This document shows, one piece after another, positions 1,233 through 58,239 of a stretch of DNA of 64,000 bases. Under the pieces are notes generated by a model. That model worked only from the letters and a program-made list of their open reading frames with translations, did not search any database and was not told where the DNA came from. The stretch covers positions 2,135 to 66,134 of the forward strand of contig CAYZXY010000010.1 of NCBI GenBank assembly GCA_964482555.1, given 5' to 3'. Source of the stretch: an uncultured Pirellulales bacterium (lineage in GTDB: Bacteria; Planctomycetota; Phycisphaerae; Sedimentisphaerales; SM23-30). Each line of letters opens with the position of its first letter. Positions within the stretch are counted from its first letter, which is position 1. Both the position numbers and the translations under genes were made by a program.

Positions 1233-4820
<3,588 letters not shown>

Positions 4821-6534: not shown

Positions 6535-9500
6535 TCAGATATTTTCCAGGACGATAAAGTTATCGGAACTGTTAAGTCTGGAATTAATCGAATCCGCGGC
6601 GTAGAGGCCGAATTCCGGATATTCGCTGCCGGTGGCGGCTATGGATTTGCCGGCGAATAAGCCGATGGAGCCGCTGCCTGAGGAGTTCGTCTGACCGCTG
6701 GGCAGTGAGCTGTAAAGTTCCGCGAGTACATAATCGGTCACGGCACCGGCGGTTACATAGGAATTATTAAACTTGTTGCCGAATATGAACTTGCCTATGT
6801 TGCCTGTGCTGAGGCTGTCATCCTGCTGGTTCAGATCGTAACGGTTTGACAGATCGGTATTCGTGCCGATATCGTAGCCGGCCAGGAACAGCGAATCGAC
6901 AACCTCGGTCCGGGCCTTCACCAGGTTCAGGTTGTCGGCGATGCTCAAGATAGCGTTATCGAAGGTATCGGCGCTGATGGACAGCAGGTTATCGGCCCGC
7001 ACCACGCCGTCAAAGACGCCGGTTTTCGCGGCGATGCTCAGGATCTCGTCTTCGGCGATGATGGTTCCCGATATGTTTTTCAGAGCGGAGATGCTTCTGA
7101 TGCTGCCGGCGGCGGCGGTTTCTTCGTTGAGGGCATTGTCGCCGGCGATGATGAAGTTGTGGGCGATGCCGCCTCGCTGGCTGGCAACGACGCCGATATC
7201 GGCGGCAGCCCGGATGTTTCCCGTGATGTCTTCACGGGCCACGACTTGCAGGATCGAGCCATTGCCGTCGATGCCGGTGGCGGTGAGGTGAGCGCCCAGG
7301 TCTTCCCTGAGGTTCACTTTGTGGATTTCACCGGCGACGACCTGGCCGCTGGCGTAGGAACTGGCTTGGAGGAATCCGAGTTGACCGGCGATATTAATAC
7401 TGACGTTTTCGCCGATATGGTCTGCCTTGATCATGGCAGGTTTGGCGGAGGGGAACTGGACATTGACGGCGGCGTTATTGTCCAGGTCGTCCACAATCAA
7501 CGAGCTCAAAGAGCCGTTGACGTCAATCTGTCTGGTAATGGATACCTGAGGAGCGAAGATGGTGCCCAGCGAGGCTGATGCGAGGGAAGGGGCCTCCTGG
7601 GCGGGGACTATGGTTGGAGGGTATGCCAGATCGGATGTTTTAATCGTTGCGATTTCGGTAGTCCCGCCCCGTACGGCAATGCGCAGCTGAGAGCGATCGG
7701 TGGTGCCGGACAATACCAGCGTGTCAATATTCGCGGCATCTCTTTTTCCGCCTTCAAGGAAAAAGACAAAGCTGCCTTCCGTCAGCGAGATGGTCACCAG
7801 GTCGCCATTGGCATCGACAAAGGTGCTGCGGTTCGTAAACGGAATGCTGCTGCCGCGGCCGATCGCCTGCAGTTCGACCGTCGATTCATCGAGGTCGTTG
7901 GTGGTCAGGTTAAAGGTCGTCTGGGCCAGAGTGTTCAGGGCGATGCTGTCGTCGGGCTGAAACAGCACATTTACAATAACGTTTTCGCCGGGTTCGATGA
8001 CTAACGGCGTCGTCAGATCGATATCCAGAGCGAACACCTCATTGGAACTGGTCCAGTTGGAGATAACCAGGTTCGTTTCCAGGGAATCATTGGAAATCGT
8101 CAGCGGCAGGCTGGCAACCTGGTCTTTGATCACCGTGCCGAAATCGAAGGAGGTTTCGGAAAGATCAATCTCAGGGCTGACGACCTTGCCGGCCAGATTA
8201 ATTTTGTAGGCTTCGAACAGGCTGCCGGTAATTTGCAGCGGCGCTTCATAGTTGCCAGCGGGCACATTGTCGCCCACAAAGGCCACAAAGACGTCCATCG
8301 GCATGCCCGGCTCCAGCACGGTATCGAGGACCAGATTGCCCGCGGCGTCAGGAAGGACTTCAAAGCCGTCGGGCGATTGCAGTTTGCCGTCTCTGTCCAG
8401 TGAGTAAAGGTCTGCGCCCAAAAGCACGAAGCCATTGTCCGGAGCGAGGATTGTGTTCAGATAGGTTTCCACTTTGTCGGCCTGAATGCGGAACCAGTCC
8501 GAAGCGGTGGCCGAGGATGATTGAGCGTCAATACTGACGGTATCCAGCTGCAAAACATCGTTGTTGCCGATGGCGTTCAGATTCGAATTGATGACGTTAA
8601 TCTGCGGAGCGGTTCCGATGCCGCGGACCTGAACCGATTCCTGAACGACATTGCCGGGCTCATCATCATCGATCAAACGGATTTGAATGGCGTCCTGATA
8701 GGATATTGTCAGGGGCTGATCGGATACAGGATTGAAGCTGACGATCAGGTCCAGGGCTTCGCCGGCGGCAACAACGATGTTTTGCAGCGGTTCGTCAGAA
8801 CCGGCAAGGGCAAGATCAAATGCGGAGGCGTCGCCTTTCACCAGGTCGATCCAGTCGATGGAGGCCGGTCCGGTGCCGGTATTTTTCAGCGTGAGGATGC
8901 GTTCCGTCGTCGAATTGAAGGGCCGGTGGCCGTATTGCAGCTGGCCGTCATTGACGCCGTCGTAATAGACGTCGTTGTCGTTTTCGCTGATGGTCAGCTC
9001 AGGCAACAGGCCGGTCGCCATGACATCAATGGTCGTTGTGTATTGCTGTTTATTGCCGAACTTATCGGTGCTTTGGATAACCAGCGTATCGACCGCGGTG
9101 CCGGCCTGGCTCGGATTGAAGTAAATGTTAAGCGTCTGGGATGCCGTATCGGATGTGGCTGAACCCAGCAGGAAGGGGAACGTCGGGGCCATATCCGGAT
9201 CGTCCGGCGAGAGGGACATCTGGAAATCGGAATGGGGATTGACGAAAAAGATGTTATTGATCTGGAGGCTGATATCGCCGATGTTGTTGAGCGTGAAGCT
9301 GGTCTGGGAATAGGTATCTACCGGCGTAGCAGGCACGACAAGTTTCTTATCCACATCAATGTCGAATTGCAGGTCCGCGCCGGTGATGACACCTTCGATA
9401 TCGATGACATCCGTTTCTTCCACCAGGGTTTCATTGCCCTGGTCGTCGATCGTATAAATCTGGTCGATGGTCAGCGTGTCGGTCAGCGTGTAAGGATTGT

Positions 9501-12500
9501 CGTTGTCGGGATTGGTTTCAGTTGGCAGGAACTGCACCCAGATATTCCGCACCGTGCCCGGCTCGATGAACAGATCGCCGCCTTCGCGTCCATAAGGCAG
9601 CTCTTCGAAAATTATCTCTTCGCCCGTTTGCGGTTCATTGGTCGGGTCGTCAAAGACGCGAACAGCAAAATTATCGCTGATGTTCAGGGTCCAGTCTTCC
9701 ACCCGGACTAATTCGTCACTGCGGTTGAAGATGCTTACCCGTTCCAGCGGATAGCTCCGGTCAACGGCGGATTTGCCGAAGGCCAGTTTTTTGTTTAGCG
9801 TCTCTTCGACGGAAAAGCCGGTGGAATCATAAATGATAATCGGTGACGTGTCGATGGATATCGGTCCGCTTAAAATGGCATTATTCGTGGTTTCCGTGTC
9901 AGCTTCCGTTTCCGCGATCGTGTCAGCCTGGTCGATGACGGCAATGAGATAGTAATCGCCTGCAGGAAAGATTTCGCTGATTGACGGAATCTCCACGGTA
10001 GATTGGGTATCGAAATAGATGGCATTTGTCGGATCCGCGAAGAAGAATCCCGGAATAAAATCGTTCATGGCACCCGGCAGGTCAGCCAGCGTCTGAGCCG
10101 ATGCCGGATCGGTAATATTCAGCAGGGTATCGGGGACGTAGGATTCGGGGTCATCTTCCGGGACAATGTCCGGGTCGTCAAAGATGGTATCGGCGCTGAG
10201 ATAATATTTGATATCCGTGCTTTCCAGAATACGGCCTACACCCAGATTGGTATATGTCGTTGTCACATCCAGCTCTTTGCCGGCCTGTACGAACAACGGG
10301 GGGATATCCGTTAACGGGCCCAGATCGGGATTGGCCAGCGTCGGAAAAGATAAATCCATAACGGCCAGGTCGCCGAGCAGCCCCGTGCCGTCGAGGGTGA
10401 CCGGCTCGGTGGCGCCGTTGGTAATGTCGAAGCGGGCTTCTTCGGTATTTTCCGCCCTGTCAGGATGGAAAACGACGGGGATTTCGACTGCGGTATGATC
10501 CGGCAGATTATTCAGATTGCCCAGCGAGCGCAGGGACACATCGACATTGACCGGTAAAAGCTCGTCCGTCAGAATAAACGGCTCGAAGGTTTGGGGGTTA
10601 AACGCATATTCCGCCCGTTCCGTCGCCAGGGTCAACGTATAGGTCCCTTCTTCCATCAAGACCGTTTTGAAGGTTTCCGTTTCGCCGACCTGGGTATAAG
10701 GCTTATCCAGTATCTTGATGCCATCGGCATTGAAGACACTAATGAACAGGTTGTCCTCGGCCAGCACGTCGAATTCGATGATCTCGCCGGCCGTGCTGCC
10801 GCCTTCGGGAGCGACAATTTCGATCACGCCGATGTCCTGTTCCATCTGCTGGCGTATGAAATTCTTGCGCATCAGGGCATCCGAATAAACGGCGGTTTCG
10901 TCCTGGGCCGGAATCGTCATTTCGGTTACCGCGAAATCGCCGGTCTGTTCCGCCCTGTTCACCAGCATCTGATAGACGGGGGGTTCGGGTTCAGATGAAA
11001 GGAAAGAAAAATCAACCGATATATAATACCGGCCTGTATAAGTTGCTATGAAGGAATCGATATATTCCCGACCTTCGCTGCTTAATAAATCCGCTCCGCC
11101 GGCCACCGGTTGTCCATATTCATTGTATATTTCGAAGTCTTCGATATAGACATATTCCGTGTTGTAGGAGATCAGTTCGATGCGGTCACCCGCTGCGGCG
11201 TCGAAATAATACCAGAAAGAGGGCGTCGGGTCATAAGGCATCGGGATGTTATATTCGGTCGGGGCCATGACGCGGAAAGGTTTTTCTTTAGAGAAAGAAC
11301 CTACCGCGATTTCTTCAGCGTTTTCCATCGTGAAATCGACGACCGGCGCCGTCGTGATATCGTTCAGCAGCGAGAACTTACCGCCCATTTCCTCCGTGAA
11401 ACTGACGCCGTTGAGGTTGAGAGGGCCGCCGGTGTTATTGATGAAGTAAAGATACTCCGGAGATGAATTGACGCCCACCGGGCTTTCAAAAGCGATCTGG
11501 CGGTCGAATGAATCTTCCCAGGAATCCAGAACCAGGATCGTACTGCCGACATAAGCTATCTGGTTGGATGTCTGCACGTTATTGGATGCGTCGTCTTCGT
11601 TGACGCTTTTATGGGAATTGACTACGGCGGTCAGATGATAGTCGCCATCGGGGATGCCGGTCGGATTCAGGGTTTCGGTGAAGGAGAAAGTCTCATCGAT
11701 TTCGAAGGGACCTTCATAAAGGAATTCACCCAGCCACAAATCGCCCTCGTTCAGCGGCAGGCCGTCGTCGTCGATGCCGTTCCAGATCATGTCGGGATTC
11801 TGGGTCAGATAATACGAGACATACATATTGTCATACACTTTCAGCGGTCCGTTGTTGGTGAAACTGCCGCTGACTTCAATTTCATCGCCGCTGAAGAAGA
11901 GGCTGGGAGAATTTACTTCATGCCCCGGGTTCAGCGGATTGACATAATTCAGGATTTCCAGCGAGTCCAGCGACAGGTCCGTGGGGTCTCCCGGAGCGCT
12001 GGCTCCGAACAATTCCACACCGTCGGTGGTGGTGTTGCCGGCATCCTCGCCGCTGATATTAAAGACCAGTTCCGCCGTAAGCTCGTCGGCGTTGATTTTC
12101 GGTGTAAAGAAGACTTCGATATCGGCGGTTTCACCTGGATCGAGTACCAGAATGGAATCGGTTTTCACGACCTCAAGGTCAACCAGAGCAGCCCCGACAT
12201 AAACAGCGGCATCAGAGGTGATTTTGATGTAATAGTACCCATCATCCATTAGCATCATATCCAGCGCGGGGATATTGCCGTTTTCATCCAGGTTTTCAAT
12301 GTCTGCGAGCGAGCCGAACGATGTGCCGTACTGGTTATACACTTCAATATCGACCTGGGTATCGGGTACATCGCCCACCGAGAGGGGGTACGCGAACTGA
12401 TAGTCCCCGATGGTCTGGGGGTCGCCGTCATCGGGTACGTTCAGGTCGTCTATGACAAGAATGATATGATAATCGCCATTCTCAAAAGTTCCCGGAGCCG

Positions 12501-13410
12501 GCAGATCGACTTTCGTTTGCTCCACATGCGATTCTCCGGCTGGCAAGGCGGAGGCTGCGAATGAATTCAGCATGATATCGATTGGCGAGCCATCATCATT
12601 GGTTTGGAGAATCCCGTCTTCATCGACATCGAGCGAATCGTTTTCGCTGAAATAATATGTCACTGTGAAATCGGCGGGCGCTGGGCTGTTGTTAAAGATC
12701 GAAGACCCTAACAGTAAAGTATTCGCCCATTCGGGTTTCCCTGCTAATTGCAGCTCTTCCGGCAGTAAAAGGTCATCGTTATCGCTGGTATCCGGGGGTT
12801 CCAGCGGCGTCCTGGCTATTGCGGATAAATCCACGATATCGCCATAATGACCGTCAATTTTATACCATAGTTCCTTATTGGTTTCCGGTTCGGTCGTGAT
12901 GGTATTCAAGATGGAGTCCCCGACAATCGTGCCGTCGGCCAGTTCCGCCCGGTAGTCCAGTTCGACAATGTCTTGCGGGTTTAGTGGATCAAGAAAATCG
13001 TTCGGTCCTTCGTCCGGTAAAGGTCCGGGTAGAAAGAAAGTAAAACTATCCTTGTTATCGCCAATGATTTCGGGCGATGCGATGACCGTTCCTTCGCCGT
13101 TCCAGGTTATCGAAACCGTGTGGTGTGATAAAACCTCATTGAGATTCGGTTCATCCCCGGCATCAATCATTGCCAGGATATCTTCATAAGGAATAGTCGT
13201 GGCCGGGTAACCTGTTTTGACAGGATAAAGGGCAGGATCGTCCAATTCAAATGAGACATACTGGTCAGAAGGATCGTCCCAGGTGTCCAGTAAGTTGTAC
13301 CAGTCCGGATCGGTGGGCTGATTGAACACCAGGGGCATTGGACCGGCCAGCATCTCCTTGATATCCGCGGATAGTAATATACGATTCTCCAACGACTCTA
13401 AATGCAGCAT
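6535..13410 (-). CDS. Giant (2291 aa) highly acidic secreted/surface protein with repeated Ig-like/CARDB-like/ASH-like modules
   Basis: One uninterrupted ORF with N-terminus MLHLESLENRILLSADI (LExRxLLSA-type). It has recurrent CARDB-like strings (DGDYHLTAVVN...NEDDASNN, AGDYYLIAVIDQ...TTNN, NGDYHIILVIDD). ASH/choice-of-anchor-like modules are also present (FDFGTVIKDQVASLPLTISN...LVIEPGENVIVNVLFQPD). The composition is rich in D/E/T/N. Confidence 0.85.
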   Translation of the reverse strand: MLHLESLENRILLSADIKEMLAGPMPLVFNQPTDPDWYNLLDTWDDPSDQYVSFELDDPALYPVKTGYPATTIPYEDILAMIDAGDEPNLNEVLSHHTVSITWNGEGTVIASPEIIGDNKDSFTFFLPGPLPDEGPNDFLDPLNPQDIVELDYRAELADGTIVGDSILNTITTEPETNKELWYKIDGHYGDIVDLSAIARTPLEPPDTSDNDDLLLPEELQLAGKPEWANTLLLGSSIFNNSPAPADFTVTYYFSENDSLDVDEDGILQTNDDGSPIDIMLNSFAASALPAGESHVEQTKVDLPAPGTFENGDYHIILVIDDLNVPDDGDPQTIGDYQFAYPLSVGDVPDTQVDIEVYNQYGTSFGSLADIENLDENGNIPALDMMLMDDGYYYIKITSDAAVYVGAALVDLEVVKTDSILVLDPGETADIEVFFTPKINADELTAELVFNISGEDAGNTTTDGVELFGASAPGDPTDLSLDSLEILNYVNPLNPGHEVNSPSLFFSGDEIEVSGSFTNNGPLKVYDNMYVSYYLTQNPDMIWNGIDDDGLPLNEGDLWLGEFLYEGPFEIDETFSFTETLNPTGIPDGDYHLTAVVNSHKSVNEDDASNNVQTSNQIAYVGSTILVLDSWEDSFDRQIAFESPVGVNSSPEYLYFINNTGGPLNLNGVSFTEEMGGKFSLLNDITTAPVVDFTMENAEEIAVGSFSKEKPFRVMAPTEYNIPMPYDPTPSFWYYFDAAAGDRIELISYNTEYVYIEDFEIYNEYGQPVAGGADLLSSEGREYIDSFIATYTGRYYISVDFSFLSSEPEPPVYQMLVNRAEQTGDFAVTEMTIPAQDETAVYSDALMRKNFIRQQMEQDIGVIEIVAPEGGSTAGEIIEFDVLAEDNLFISVFNADGIKILDKPYTQVGETETFKTVLMEEGTYTLTLATERAEYAFNPQTFEPFILTDELLPVNVDVSLRSLGNLNNLPDHTAVEIPVVFHPDRAENTEEARFDITNGATEPVTLDGTGLLGDLAVMDLSFPTLANPDLGPLTDIPPLFVQAGKELDVTTTYTNLGVGRILESTDIKYYLSADTIFDDPDIVPEDDPESYVPDTLLNITDPASAQTLADLPGAMNDFIPGFFFADPTNAIYFDTQSTVEIPSISEIFPAGDYYLIAVIDQADTIAETEADTETTNNAILSGPISIDTSPIIIYDSTGFSVEETLNKKLAFGKSAVDRSYPLERVSIFNRSDELVRVEDWTLNISDNFAVRVFDDPTNEPQTGEEIIFEELPYGREGGDLFIEPGTVRNIWVQFLPTETNPDNDNPYTLTDTLTIDQIYTIDDQGNETLVEETDVIDIEGVITGADLQFDIDVDKKLVVPATPVDTYSQTSFTLNNIGDISLQINNIFFVNPHSDFQMSLSPDDPDMAPTFPFLLGSATSDTASQTLNIYFNPSQAGTAVDTLVIQSTDKFGNKQQYTTTIDVMATGLLPELTISENDNDVYYDGVNDGQLQYGHRPFNSTTERILTLKNTGTGPASIDWIDLVKGDASAFDLALAGSDEPLQNIVVAAGEALDLIVSFNPVSDQPLTISYQDAIQIRLIDDDEPGNVVQESVQVRGIGTAPQINVINSNLNAIGNNDVLQLDTVSIDAQSSSATASDWFRIQADKVETYLNTILAPDNGFVLLGADLYSLDRDGKLQSPDGFEVLPDAAGNLVLDTVLEPGMPMDVFVAFVGDNVPAGNYEAPLQITGSLFEAYKINLAGKVVSPEIDLSETSFDFGTVIKDQVASLPLTISNDSLETNLVISNWTSSNEVFALDIDLTTPLVIEPGENVIVNVLFQPDDSIALNTLAQTTFNLTTNDLDESTVELQAIGRGSSIPFTNRSTFVDANGDLVTISLTEGSFVFFLEGGKRDAANIDTLVLSGTTDRSQLRIAVRGGTTEIATIKTSDLAYPPTIVPAQEAPSLASASLGTIFAPQVSITRQIDVNGSLSSLIVDDLDNNAAVNVQFPSAKPAMIKADHIGENVSINIAGQLGFLQASSYASGQVVAGEIHKVNLREDLGAHLTATGIDGNGSILQVVAREDITGNIRAAADIGVVASQRGGIAHNFIIAGDNALNEETAAAGSIRSISALKNISGTIIAEDEILSIAAKTGVFDGVVRADNLLSISADTFDNAILSIADNLNLVKARTEVVDSLFLAGYDIGTNTDLSNRYDLNQQDDSLSTGNIGKFIFGNKFNNSYVTAGAVTDYVLAELYSSLPSGQTNSSGSGSIGLFAGKSIAATGSEYPEFGLYAADSINSRLNSSDNFIVLENI

Positions 13411-16983: not shown

Positions 16984-17090
16984 CTCACCCCAAACCGGGT
17001 AGAAAGCTCCGGGCAGTGCCGGGTGTAAGCTTAATATTTGCAGATAGTTACGTTCCGAGAAAACGAGTAATTTCAATCGGAACAATTATA
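16984..17090 (+). repeat. R105 interspersed repeat, subtype A (5' end diverged)
   Basis: ...CCGGGTAGAAAGCTCCGGGCAGTGCCGGGTGTAAGCTTAATATTTGCAGATAGTTACGTTCCGAGAAAACGAGTAATTTCAATCGGAACAATTATA. Confidence 0.85.
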
Positions 17091-34867: not shown

Positions 34868-35137
34868 ATGGGACGATCATTAAAAAAAGGCCCTTTTGTA
34901 GATGAGAAACTCTTCCAGAAGGTCATGAAGCTGGATGAAGAAGGTAAACACGACGCGTTGAAGACCTGGGCTCGGCGCTGCACGATAGTGCCGGAATTTG
35001 TGGGCCATACATTTATGGTCTATAACGGCAAGGTGTTTAACAAAGTTTATGTCACCGAAGATATGGTGGGGCATAAACTGGGTGAGTTTTCGCCGACACG
35101 GATCTTCCGGGGTCATGCCGGCAGCAAGAAGAAGTAG
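34868..35137 (+). CDS. rpsS: 30S ribosomal protein S19
   Basis: [15 protein letters not shown]...[10 protein letters not shown]...[11 protein letters not shown] matches S19. Confidence 0.97.
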
Positions 35138-35138
35138 T

Positions 35139-35243
35139 TATACCCAAAGGGTATGAGAATTCCCGCCAGGGCCAGTCGTAAAGGCATTGCCCGCACATAG
35201 TCATGTTTTGACAAAACGGGAATTTTCAATTGGAACGAATATA
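35139..35243 (+). repeat. R105 interspersed repeat, subtype B
   Basis: TATACCCAAAGGGTATGAGAATTCCCGCCAGGGCCAGTCGTAAAGGCATTGCCCGCACATAGTCATGTTTTGACAAAACGGGAATTTTCAATTGGAACGAATATA. It starts 1 nt after the rpsS stop. Confidence 0.92.
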
Positions 35244-35283
35244 ATAAATGACAGTAAGCCTGGTGATAGATAGGTGAAAGCTT

Positions 35284-35853
35284 ATGTTAAGCGGTGAAAA
35301 ATTAAAGAAGTATCGCACGGACAGCGGGAAGACCGTAGAAGAGCTGGCAGAACATTTGTTGCCAGCGGGTTTGGAAGACGGGGAGCGTGACGTTCAGCTT
35401 AAGACGGCCGTTTCCAGCGTTAAAAACTGGGAACGCGGTCTTTACAAACCCCGGCCGACATCAAGAGAGTTGTCGCAGCTCGCACAAACACTGGGTGTCG
35501 AGCAATTGGATTTGCATGTATGGAAAGCCTCGCATAATCATTGTCCCATGGCGCCGCGGAAGGTGCGGCTGGTGGCAGATCTGATTCGCGGCCGGCATGT
35601 GCAGGATGCTCTGGATGTGTTGAAGTTTACGAATAAGCGGGCGGCCGTAATGGTGGACAAAGTGCTTCGCAGCGCGATTGCGAATGCGGATGAGAACGAA
35701 GCGAATATTGAACGGCTGTTTGTGTCGGAGTCGCGTGTGGATGAGGGCGGCGTTCGTCAGGGGACGCGTCGCTGGCGTCCGAAAGATCGCGGTCGGGCGG
35801 TGCCTTTCACCCGGTTGTCGAGTCATATACATGTCAGTGTGGATATGGAATAA
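35284..35853 (+). CDS. rplV: 50S ribosomal protein L22 with an in-frame ~75-aa N-terminal XRE-type HTH extension
   Basis: The C-terminal ~113 aa are canonical L22 ([41 protein letters not shown]...[22 protein letters not shown]). The N-terminal part reads [22 protein letters not shown]...[37 protein letters not shown] lies 7 nt upstream of the ATG at 35284. Confidence 0.85.
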   Translation: [189 protein letters not shown]

Positions 35854-37110: not shown

Positions 37111-37146
37111 CAGAGATCAGGACATAGTATAATACAAGAAGTAAGA

Positions 37147-37250
37147 TATACCAAAGGGTATGAGAATCCCCGCCAGGGCCAGTCGTAAAGGCTTTGCCCG
37201 CACATAATTGTGTTTGGATAAAGCGGGAATTTTCAATCGGAACGAGTATA
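37147..37250 (+). repeat. R105 interspersed repeat, subtype B
   Basis: TATACCAAAGGGTATGAGAATCCCCGCCAGGGCCAGTCGTAAAGGCTTTGCCCGCACATAATTGTGTTTGGATAAAGCGGGAATTTTCAATCGGAACGAGTATA. It ends 7 nt before the rpmC ATG. Confidence 0.92.
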
Positions 37251-58134: not shown

Positions 58135-58239
58135 TATACCCAAAGGGTATAAGAATTCCCGCCAGGGCCAGTCGTAAAGGCTTTTCCCGCACATATTTAC
58201 GTTTAGGAAAAATGGGAATTTTCTATCGGAACGAGTATA
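58135..58239 (+). repeat. R105 interspersed repeat, subtype B
   Basis: TATACCCAAAGGGTATAAGAATTCCCGCCAGGGCCAGTCGTAAAGGCTTTTCCCGCACATATTTACGTTTAGGAAAAATGGGAATTTTCTATCGGAACGAGTATA. Confidence 0.92.

Follow-up and report, generated by a model that had tools for sequence, protein, structure and literature searches.

In the window (the whole stretch of 64,000 nucleotides that was analysed), the junction between rpsS (34868-35137) and rplV (35284-35853) is occupied by a plus-strand, type B copy of the MITE R105, which extends from 35139 to 35243 when both copies of the TA target site (35139-35140 and 35242-35243) are included. The mobile unit of this copy, TACCC...GAATA, corresponds to positions 35141-35241 of the plus strand; the duplication of TA is deduced from three cases at other sites of the genome in which one copy is nested in another. 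On the same strand, the left terminal inverted repeat (TIR), TACCCAAAGGGTATGAGAATTCCCG (35141-35165), holds a small terminal hairpin, TACCC/GGGTA, followed by an inner block, GAGAATTCCCG (35155-35165), and the right TIR, CGGGAATTTTCAATTGGAACGAATA (35217-35241), begins with the inner block CGGGAATTTTC (35217-35227). These two inner blocks are the 5′ and 3′ arms of the long helix that is the subject of this analysis. The arms of a competing 8-bp helix lie at 35204-35211 (TGTTTTGA, plus strand) and, within the right TIR, at 35230-35237 (TTGGAACG, plus strand); the 5′ arm has degenerated in type B copies, and folding does not predict this helix in copy 35139. Two further type B copies are found on the plus strand of the window, one at the rplP/rpmC junction (37146-37250, arms at approximately 37162-37172 and 37224-37234) and one at 58135-58239 (arms at approximately 58151-58161 and 58213-58223).

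Copies of R105 at 16986, 19659, 33543, 35139, 37146, 44859, and 45866 (all on the plus strand) sit at junctions inside ribosomal-protein and RNA-polymerase operons, and all of them are co-oriented with transcription within the window. The tight spacing between R105 and the neighbouring genes in the window reflects the compactness of the ribosomal operons. We also observed that the rplV reading frame (35284-35853, plus strand) encodes 189 amino acids with the L22 domain on residues 82-186 only, so that the protein has either an N-terminal extension of approximately 80 amino acids or a true start further downstream; the longest-ORF start lies 40 nt past the MITE. Elsewhere in the window, the minus strand carries a 2291-amino acid ORF (6535-13410) with a choice-of-anchor D domain and an N-terminal LEPR-XLL-type signal.

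Two nhmmer passes over the 3.6-Mb assembly detected 843 to 896 copies of R105, amounting to 85.7 kb or 2.4% of the genome, of which 626 to 646 were full-length. The unit is 101 nt long and non-coding, and the conserved stretch runs from TATACCC to GAGTATA over 105 columns. Clustering divided the full-length copies into subfamilies A1 (166 copies), A2 (191 copies), B (216 copies), C (53 copies), and D (about 12 copies). A2, the larger of the two type A subfamilies, diverges least from its consensus (approximately 0.085, compared to 0.12 for B and 0.15 for A1) and is the youngest of the three large subfamilies. Members of the minor subfamily D (about 12 copies; for example C22:15808(+), C117:4666(-), and C4:82344(+)) differ in the right half, which reads GTCTTGTCCAGGCGGACAGATTCATGTGTGACGAGTATA, and their ends are the nearest to those of the IS found in genome G014 that is described below.

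Mobility of the repeat was evident from three insertions of R105 into R105 (C19:50560-50795, C58:9800-10030, and C85:5940-6170). Deleting the 101 nt (TAC...GTA) together with one TA restored the host consensus in all three cases, and since the host site on C58 has a single TA, the duplication is fixed at 2 nt and a duplication of 4 nt is excluded. R105 is a mobile element that duplicates TA. With respect to genes, 221 copies in tandem contexts lie in the sense and 116 in the antisense orientation, while 124 copies are located between divergent and 70 between convergent genes. The distances from R105 to the next start codon are broad (median 86 nt), and these broad distances, together with the one third of copies in antisense, ruled out a fixed leader, 5′-UTR, or Shine-Dalgarno or ribosome-binding module.

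A preliminary description of this DNA, made from the sequence alone, had proposed a long-range helix in the type B copies that crosses the 8-bp helix and could give rise to a pseudoknot or to a two-state fold. Direct read-out of copy 35139 confirmed the complementarity of 35155-35165 (GAGAATTCCCG) and 35217-35227 (CGGGAATTTTC), which gives 11 contiguous pairs including one G-T (G-U in RNA), or 12 pairs when T35154-A35228 is added. The same pairing, as had been claimed, is present in copy 37146 (GAGAATCCCCGC/GCGGGAATTTTC, with one C.A mismatch) and in copy 58135 (AGAATTCCCG/TGGGAATTTT). The competing helix, CGTTCCGA/TCGGAACG, corresponds in copy 35139 to 35204-35211 and 35230-35237, and the coordinates agree with the description in that the 3′ arm of the long helix lies inside the loop of the 8-bp helix, 2 nt (35228-35229) away from its 3′ arm, so that the two helices cross. 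Taken by itself, an 11-bp stem in one 105-mer is only moderately unusual, since a stem of at least 11 bp occurred in 4% of dinucleotide shuffles of a single 105-mer and one of at least 12 bp in 1.5%. Across the genome, however, the consensus built from 216 full-length type B copies contains the pairing.

Thermodynamic folding was used to compare the two helices across subfamilies. In subfamily B, the mean pair probability of the long helix was 0.51, with this helix dominant in 55% of the copies, compared to 0.04 for the 8-bp helix. The corresponding values were 0.03 and 0.35 in A1 and 0.11 and 0.56 in A2, and in no copy did both helices have a pair probability above 0.3. Forcing either helix in the B consensus gave -31.4 kcal/mol for the long helix and -24.3 kcal/mol for the 8-bp helix, and the gap widened to 15.8 kcal/mol in copy 35139 (-33.8 versus -18.0 kcal/mol), while in the A2 consensus the order was reversed (-27.4 versus -37.4 kcal/mol). 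The minimum-free-energy structure of 35139-35243 is the long-helix fold (-33.8 kcal/mol), and its z score was -3.9 when folded as RNA and -2.1 when folded as DNA; a folding energy below that of shuffles is expected for any inverted repeat. The 8-bp helix of type B is damaged by a G.G mismatch and a G-T pair in the consensus. The dominant predicted fold is thus the long helix in B and D and the 8-bp helix or local hairpins in A, and no structure was conserved across subfamilies A, B, C, and D. A search of Rfam found only tRNAs at the gathering score in the window and nothing at E ≤ 1 in 35100-35290.

From the geometry of H-type pseudoknots, we infer that a 2-nt linker cannot span an 11-bp stem, and the simultaneous pseudoknot was therefore judged sterically impossible. 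Of the two options left in the preliminary description, mutually exclusive conformers are the better one, as the crossing helices cannot both form. Gaps of 7 to 16 kcal/mol, with one helix dominant in each subfamily, mean that there is no balanced switch, which speaks against a functional two-state fold. The folding models indicate that the helices are alternatives and that each subfamily is committed to one of them.

The long helix pairs position i of the element with position 106-i and hence coincides with an end-to-end inverted symmetry of R105. We compared the first 45 nt with the reverse complement of the last 45 nt, ungapped, against 5000 shuffles. Identity reached 27/45 in subfamily B (highest shuffle 22), 26/45 in D (highest shuffle 25), 25/45 in A2 (highest shuffle 23), and 23/45 in C (highest shuffle 25), where the shuffle mean was 12 ± 3 (12.0 ± 2.9 for type B). 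The symmetric blocks were TATAC (positions 1-5), (T)GARAATTCCCG (16-27), and CGTAA (39-43), the strongest being positions 17-27 paired to 89-79, and the left and right ends of R105 were identical at 14 to 18 of 26 positions. These results demonstrate that the long helix is the best block of the end-to-end inverted symmetry of R105.

In the 626 copies, raw and APC-corrected mutual information was dominated by the subfamily signal and was useless as evidence for a helix. Within subfamilies (K = 4 and K = 8), mutual information displayed no helix ladder, and the only pair to stand out, 28-88, was traced to minor subfamily D. In 29 copies of a related family from genome G165 the helix was 84.5% paired, and across the seven subfamily consensus sequences it was 81.8% paired, compared to 22% to 54% when slid; in both sets the covariation was equal to that of shuffles (the score of the helix was reached by 111 of 500 and 210 of 500 shuffles). 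Only 1 of 11 pairs was compensatory across the subfamily consensus sequences. This change, T-A to G-C at 23/83 in subfamily D (about 13 copies, two pairs added), would fit selection on pairing, but it fits co-variation of the TIRs equally well, since the two ends of the G014 IS both have G there. In type B, 27 compensated doubles were counted versus 13.3 expected, which would likewise fit selection on pairing. Covariation statistics, which the preliminary description had named as a check on the helix, gave no excess over shuffles in either set.

The resident type B copies were also examined for constraint on the arms. Divergence was 0.119 in arm columns versus 0.125 elsewhere, and the load of rare variants was 0.0242 versus 0.0254 (p = 0.91). 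Rare transitions that make a wobble (G-U) and those that break a pair (A.C) stood at 12:10 in arm columns, compared to 65:68 outside them. Across the order, the sequence of both arms is conserved. At the centre of the helix, A2 has a C.A mismatch next to a T.T mismatch, and as A2 is the youngest large subfamily, pairing is not needed for spread.

It had further been proposed that in type A copies the loop segment pairs instead with the 5′ end of the element itself, and that A or G at position 4 tracks T or C in the loop. The pairing stood for A2, whose loop consensus, GGGTAT, is complementary to the TATACCC of the 5′ end, with 87% of cells paired, but copy 52894 reads TATGCGC and not TATGCCC as had been claimed. 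The correlation was seen in the 626 copies when subfamily was not controlled for (odds ratio 3.1, p = 0.015). Within A1 it was lost (8/12 versus 59/142, p = 0.13), the outcome that the preliminary description had itself said would disfavour the correlation, and 3 of the 11 copies with an exact TATGCCC carry the 'wrong' GGGTATT loop.

The ends of R105 led to the IS630 family. At C27:3501-3659(-), this genome (G000) encodes the C-terminal 53 residues of a transposase of the IS630 family with 57% identity to a G014 protein (E = 2e-15), and the stop codon is followed by 3 nt and then by CGGGAAAACTCAATCGTGAACAGTA|TA. Counted over the 26 nt inward from the terminus, as were all end identities, the right end of this remnant matches the right end of R105 at 23/26 positions in subfamily C (P = 2e-11) and at 19/26 in subfamily B. 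Intact relatives of this transposase occur in other genera, with 51% to 55% protein identity. An intact IS in G034 encodes a 345-amino acid transposase (55% identity) with CGGGAAAATTCAATTGAAAAGGGTA|TA directly after the stop codon, and its right end matches that of R105-B at 20/26. In G014, two identical IS copies encode a 354-amino acid DDE_3 transposase and are delimited by TA|TACTGTTCCTGAATGAATCTGTCC ... GGACATTCTCATGTTGGAAGAGTA|TA; their ends, TA|TAC...GTA|TA with the inner blocks ATGAGAATGTCC and ATGAATCTGTCC, match the right end of subfamily D at 18 to 19 of 26. In this presumed parental type of IS, the inner block of the right TIR begins 0 to 4 nt past the transposase stop codon. The left end of R105 is more weakly related to the IS ends (13 to 16 of 26).

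On C27, the extended interval 3440-3660 (L084:1440-1660, minus strand) encodes a 62-amino acid C-terminal transposase remnant with an R105-type right end after it, and a second R105 3′ fragment, TCAATCGGAACGGGTCTAT, lies approximately 40 nt beyond the right end of the remnant. No intact autonomous element with exactly matching ends and no intact cognate transposase gene were found in this fragmented assembly (154 contigs). Several candidates for the parent were rejected. Paired partial hits (5′-only and 3′-only) located 0.9 to 1.7 kb apart enclose ordinary genes and no transposases. The IS630 (PF13358) fragments of contigs C13 and C113 are from another IS630 lineage; downstream of the C13 fragment the sequence is not R105-like, and the gene itself is split by an R105 copy. 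The IS630 fragment of G165 (L045) and the transposase of G597 (L067) were without matching TIRs, and the G736 locus is a truncated MITE without a transposase. The R105 copy that splits the C13 gene, a type B copy at approximately 68130-68240 (minus strand) at the contig end, is inserted at TA in the IS630-type transposase remnant (...AFIDSQKRLHVF|YLPSYSPSWNPDEYVW...). A second IS630-family IS of approximately 1.2 kb was seen in G014 (G014:C18, L074:1370-2594), with at least 9 copies and inserted in CTAG, and its first 7 to 9 terminal nt (GTGCTCT..) are identical to the right terminus of the MITE type that is common in family f7 (..GAGAGCAC).

To follow the ends through the order, we searched 401 genomes with the 16-nt inner block CGATTGAAAATTCCCG, allowing at most 1 mismatch. 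The block was present in 109 of them and multi-copy in many genera, whereas the reversed-pattern control gave approximately 10 single hits. Among 20 sampled places, 14 were elements of approximately 100 nt that differed in their interiors but shared both ends, TATACCC-loop-GGGTAGTAAATTCCCG ... AAACGGGAATTTTCAATCGnGAGCACTATA. In G165, a genome from a different family within the order, a 25-nt right-end pattern retrieved a related 103-nt family of at least 40 copies with 77% to 90% identity. MITE relatives in other genera, at L053 (G482) and L054 (G627), have one or two extra interior tandem units, TACCTGTGGCACAAG. Relatives outside this genome surfaced through the short TIR pattern only: the 105-mer had no BLAST match in 40 relatives outside this genome, the left-end motif of R105 did not occur outside R105 copies, and the last 19 nt of R105 gave, among the matches listed against genome contigs, two chance ones (an uncultured MAG and Bacteroides). 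Elements bounded by two right-type ends formed no recurrent size class.

R105 is small, non-coding, and multi-copy, has TIRs, duplicates TA, and has ends homologous to those of elements with DDE_3 transposases, which together are the hallmarks of a MITE; it is a previously undescribed but ordinary MITE of the IS630 family. The long helix is very probably a by-product of the TIRs of this MITE, and no RNA function is needed to account for it. R105 is probably a 101-nt non-autonomous transposon derived from an IS of the IS630/Tc1-mariner family, which inserts at TA and duplicates it. The inner blocks are putative transposase-binding sites, and their conservation may come from a single DNA-binding domain of the transposase that recognises each of the ends in double-stranded form. 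When one binding site is present in two inverted copies, the copies must be complementary, so that a single strand, be it a read-through transcript or unwound DNA, can fold into a stem. This TIR stem would compete with local hairpins, winning in B and D, which may have kept the more IS-like left end, and losing in subfamily A, where the left end would have drifted into a local hairpin. Mobilisation of R105 in trans by an IS630-type transposase is likewise putative, and the apparent link to the transposase rests on the 62-amino acid remnant and on the intact relatives in other genera. In the related element ISY100, the footprint of the transposase covers the whole 24-bp inverted repeat, bound by the N-terminal domain of the protein, 30 bp per end suffice for transposition, and TA is duplicated (PMC2170065).

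Alternatively, the helix could belong to a true structured RNA, either an H-type pseudoknot or a two-state element akin to a riboswitch, with the two helices as functional alternatives. The helices do cross and have a 3′ region in common, the favoured helix differs by subfamily, and subfamily D offers one compensatory pair, all of which speak for such an RNA. Yet the geometry of a pseudoknot would leave a linker of 2 nt to bridge the 11-bp stem, the energy gaps of 7.5 to 15.8 kcal/mol leave no balanced switch, and the 8-bp helix of type B, with its G.G mismatch, has a pair probability of 0.04. Covariation equal to that of shuffles, the lack of a structure kept across A, B, C, and D, the presence of copies on both strands relative to genes, and the lack of an Rfam match also count against it, and we regard this reading as very improbable. 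It is more improbable still that R105 is a single-strand DNA hairpin moved by an HUH/Y1 transposase, of the REP/REPIN-RAYT or IS200/IS605 type, with the helix as the recognition hairpin. The genome has two Y1_Tnp (PF01797) genes (C1:14861-15088 and C1:29829-30113), and R105 shows terminal hairpins as well as a bias in its orientation. These genes are, however, not flanked by R105, the nearest copy being more than 1 kb away and beyond another gene, and the two ends of R105 are inverted copies, unlike the same-strand hairpins of IS200/IS605. R105 has a TA target duplication, a signature of cut-and-paste transposition by IS630/Tc1-type DDE enzymes and not of HUH elements, and its ends match those of IS630-family elements with DDE_3 transposases.

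The remaining alternative concerns a secondary use of the transposon ends and not their origin. The TIR stem (in B) or the local hairpins (in A), when present in operon transcripts, could have been exapted to affect the processing, stability, or translation of the mRNA of the downstream cistron, on the model of Correia/NEMIS elements, which act via RNase III. Copies are found inside co-transcribed ribosomal-protein operons (rpsS/rplV and rplP/rpmC), there is an excess of sense copies in tandem contexts (221:116), and copy 35139 is predicted to fold stably as RNA (-33.8 kcal/mol, z = -3.9). Long stem-loops are known from the transcripts of bacterial MITEs and can regulate mRNAs nearby (PMC2229807). 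Against it, the arms of resident copies are without constraint, with divergence and rare-variant load as elsewhere and no bias of G-U over A-C; the fold differs between subfamilies; and antisense copies make up one third of those in tandem contexts, with no fixed spacing to the start codon. We consider this exaptation unlikely, and the narrower proposal that the host may use subfamily-specific folds (an end-to-end stem of the TIRs in B and D, a pair of local hairpins in A) as signals for mRNA processing or stability appears slightly less likely again.

Among known elements, R105 resembles the pneumococcal RUP, whose proposed partner is IS630-Spn1: RUP is approximately 105 nt long, non-coding, and of high copy number, with TA termini and a TA target (PMC2229807), and its TIRs resemble those of IS630-family IS, as do those of R105 (PMC2229807). 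RUP also inserts into IS transposase genes (PMC2229807), and a copy of R105 likewise splits the IS630-type remnant on C13. The two have no sequence relationship, and they differ in number (approximately 900 copies of R105 versus approximately 108 of RUP). Unlike RUP, R105 belongs to the Phycisphaerae (Planctomycetota), has relatives across the whole order, and has subfamilies that have diverged in their internal folds. With ISY100 and other IS630/Tc1-mariner elements it shares the TA target duplication and imperfect TIRs of approximately 24 to 27 bp, and intact IS630-type relatives with DDE_3 transposases carry R105-like ends. Unlike these autonomous elements, R105 lacks a transposase gene, and only a C-terminal remnant of a matching transposase is present in the assembly. 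The Correia/NEMIS elements of Neisseria are also MITEs with a TA duplication that lie between co-transcribed genes, and their end-to-end stem forms in transcripts (PMC2229807). Processing by RNase III and binding of IHF are documented for Correia elements, whereas resident R105 copies are without constraint on the stem. The interleaved strands of the two helices recall H-type pseudoknots and two-state riboswitch platforms, but R105 differs from these in a loop that is too short and in lacking covariation, balanced energetics, and a structure common to its subfamilies.

A crossing long-range helix in an abundant intergenic repeat resembles a pseudoknotted regulatory RNA, and here it is read as the signature of TIRs, which calls for caution in the discovery of RNA motifs in repeat-rich genomes. 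R105 can now be tied to a concrete family of mobile elements, IS630/Tc1-mariner, and this genome also holds a remnant of the matching transposase. Both the abundance of the family and its distribution through the order deserve mention in genome annotation. About one quarter of the sampled genomes of the order contain MITEs that share these ends, and their recognition is useful for the annotation of Phycisphaerae genomes.
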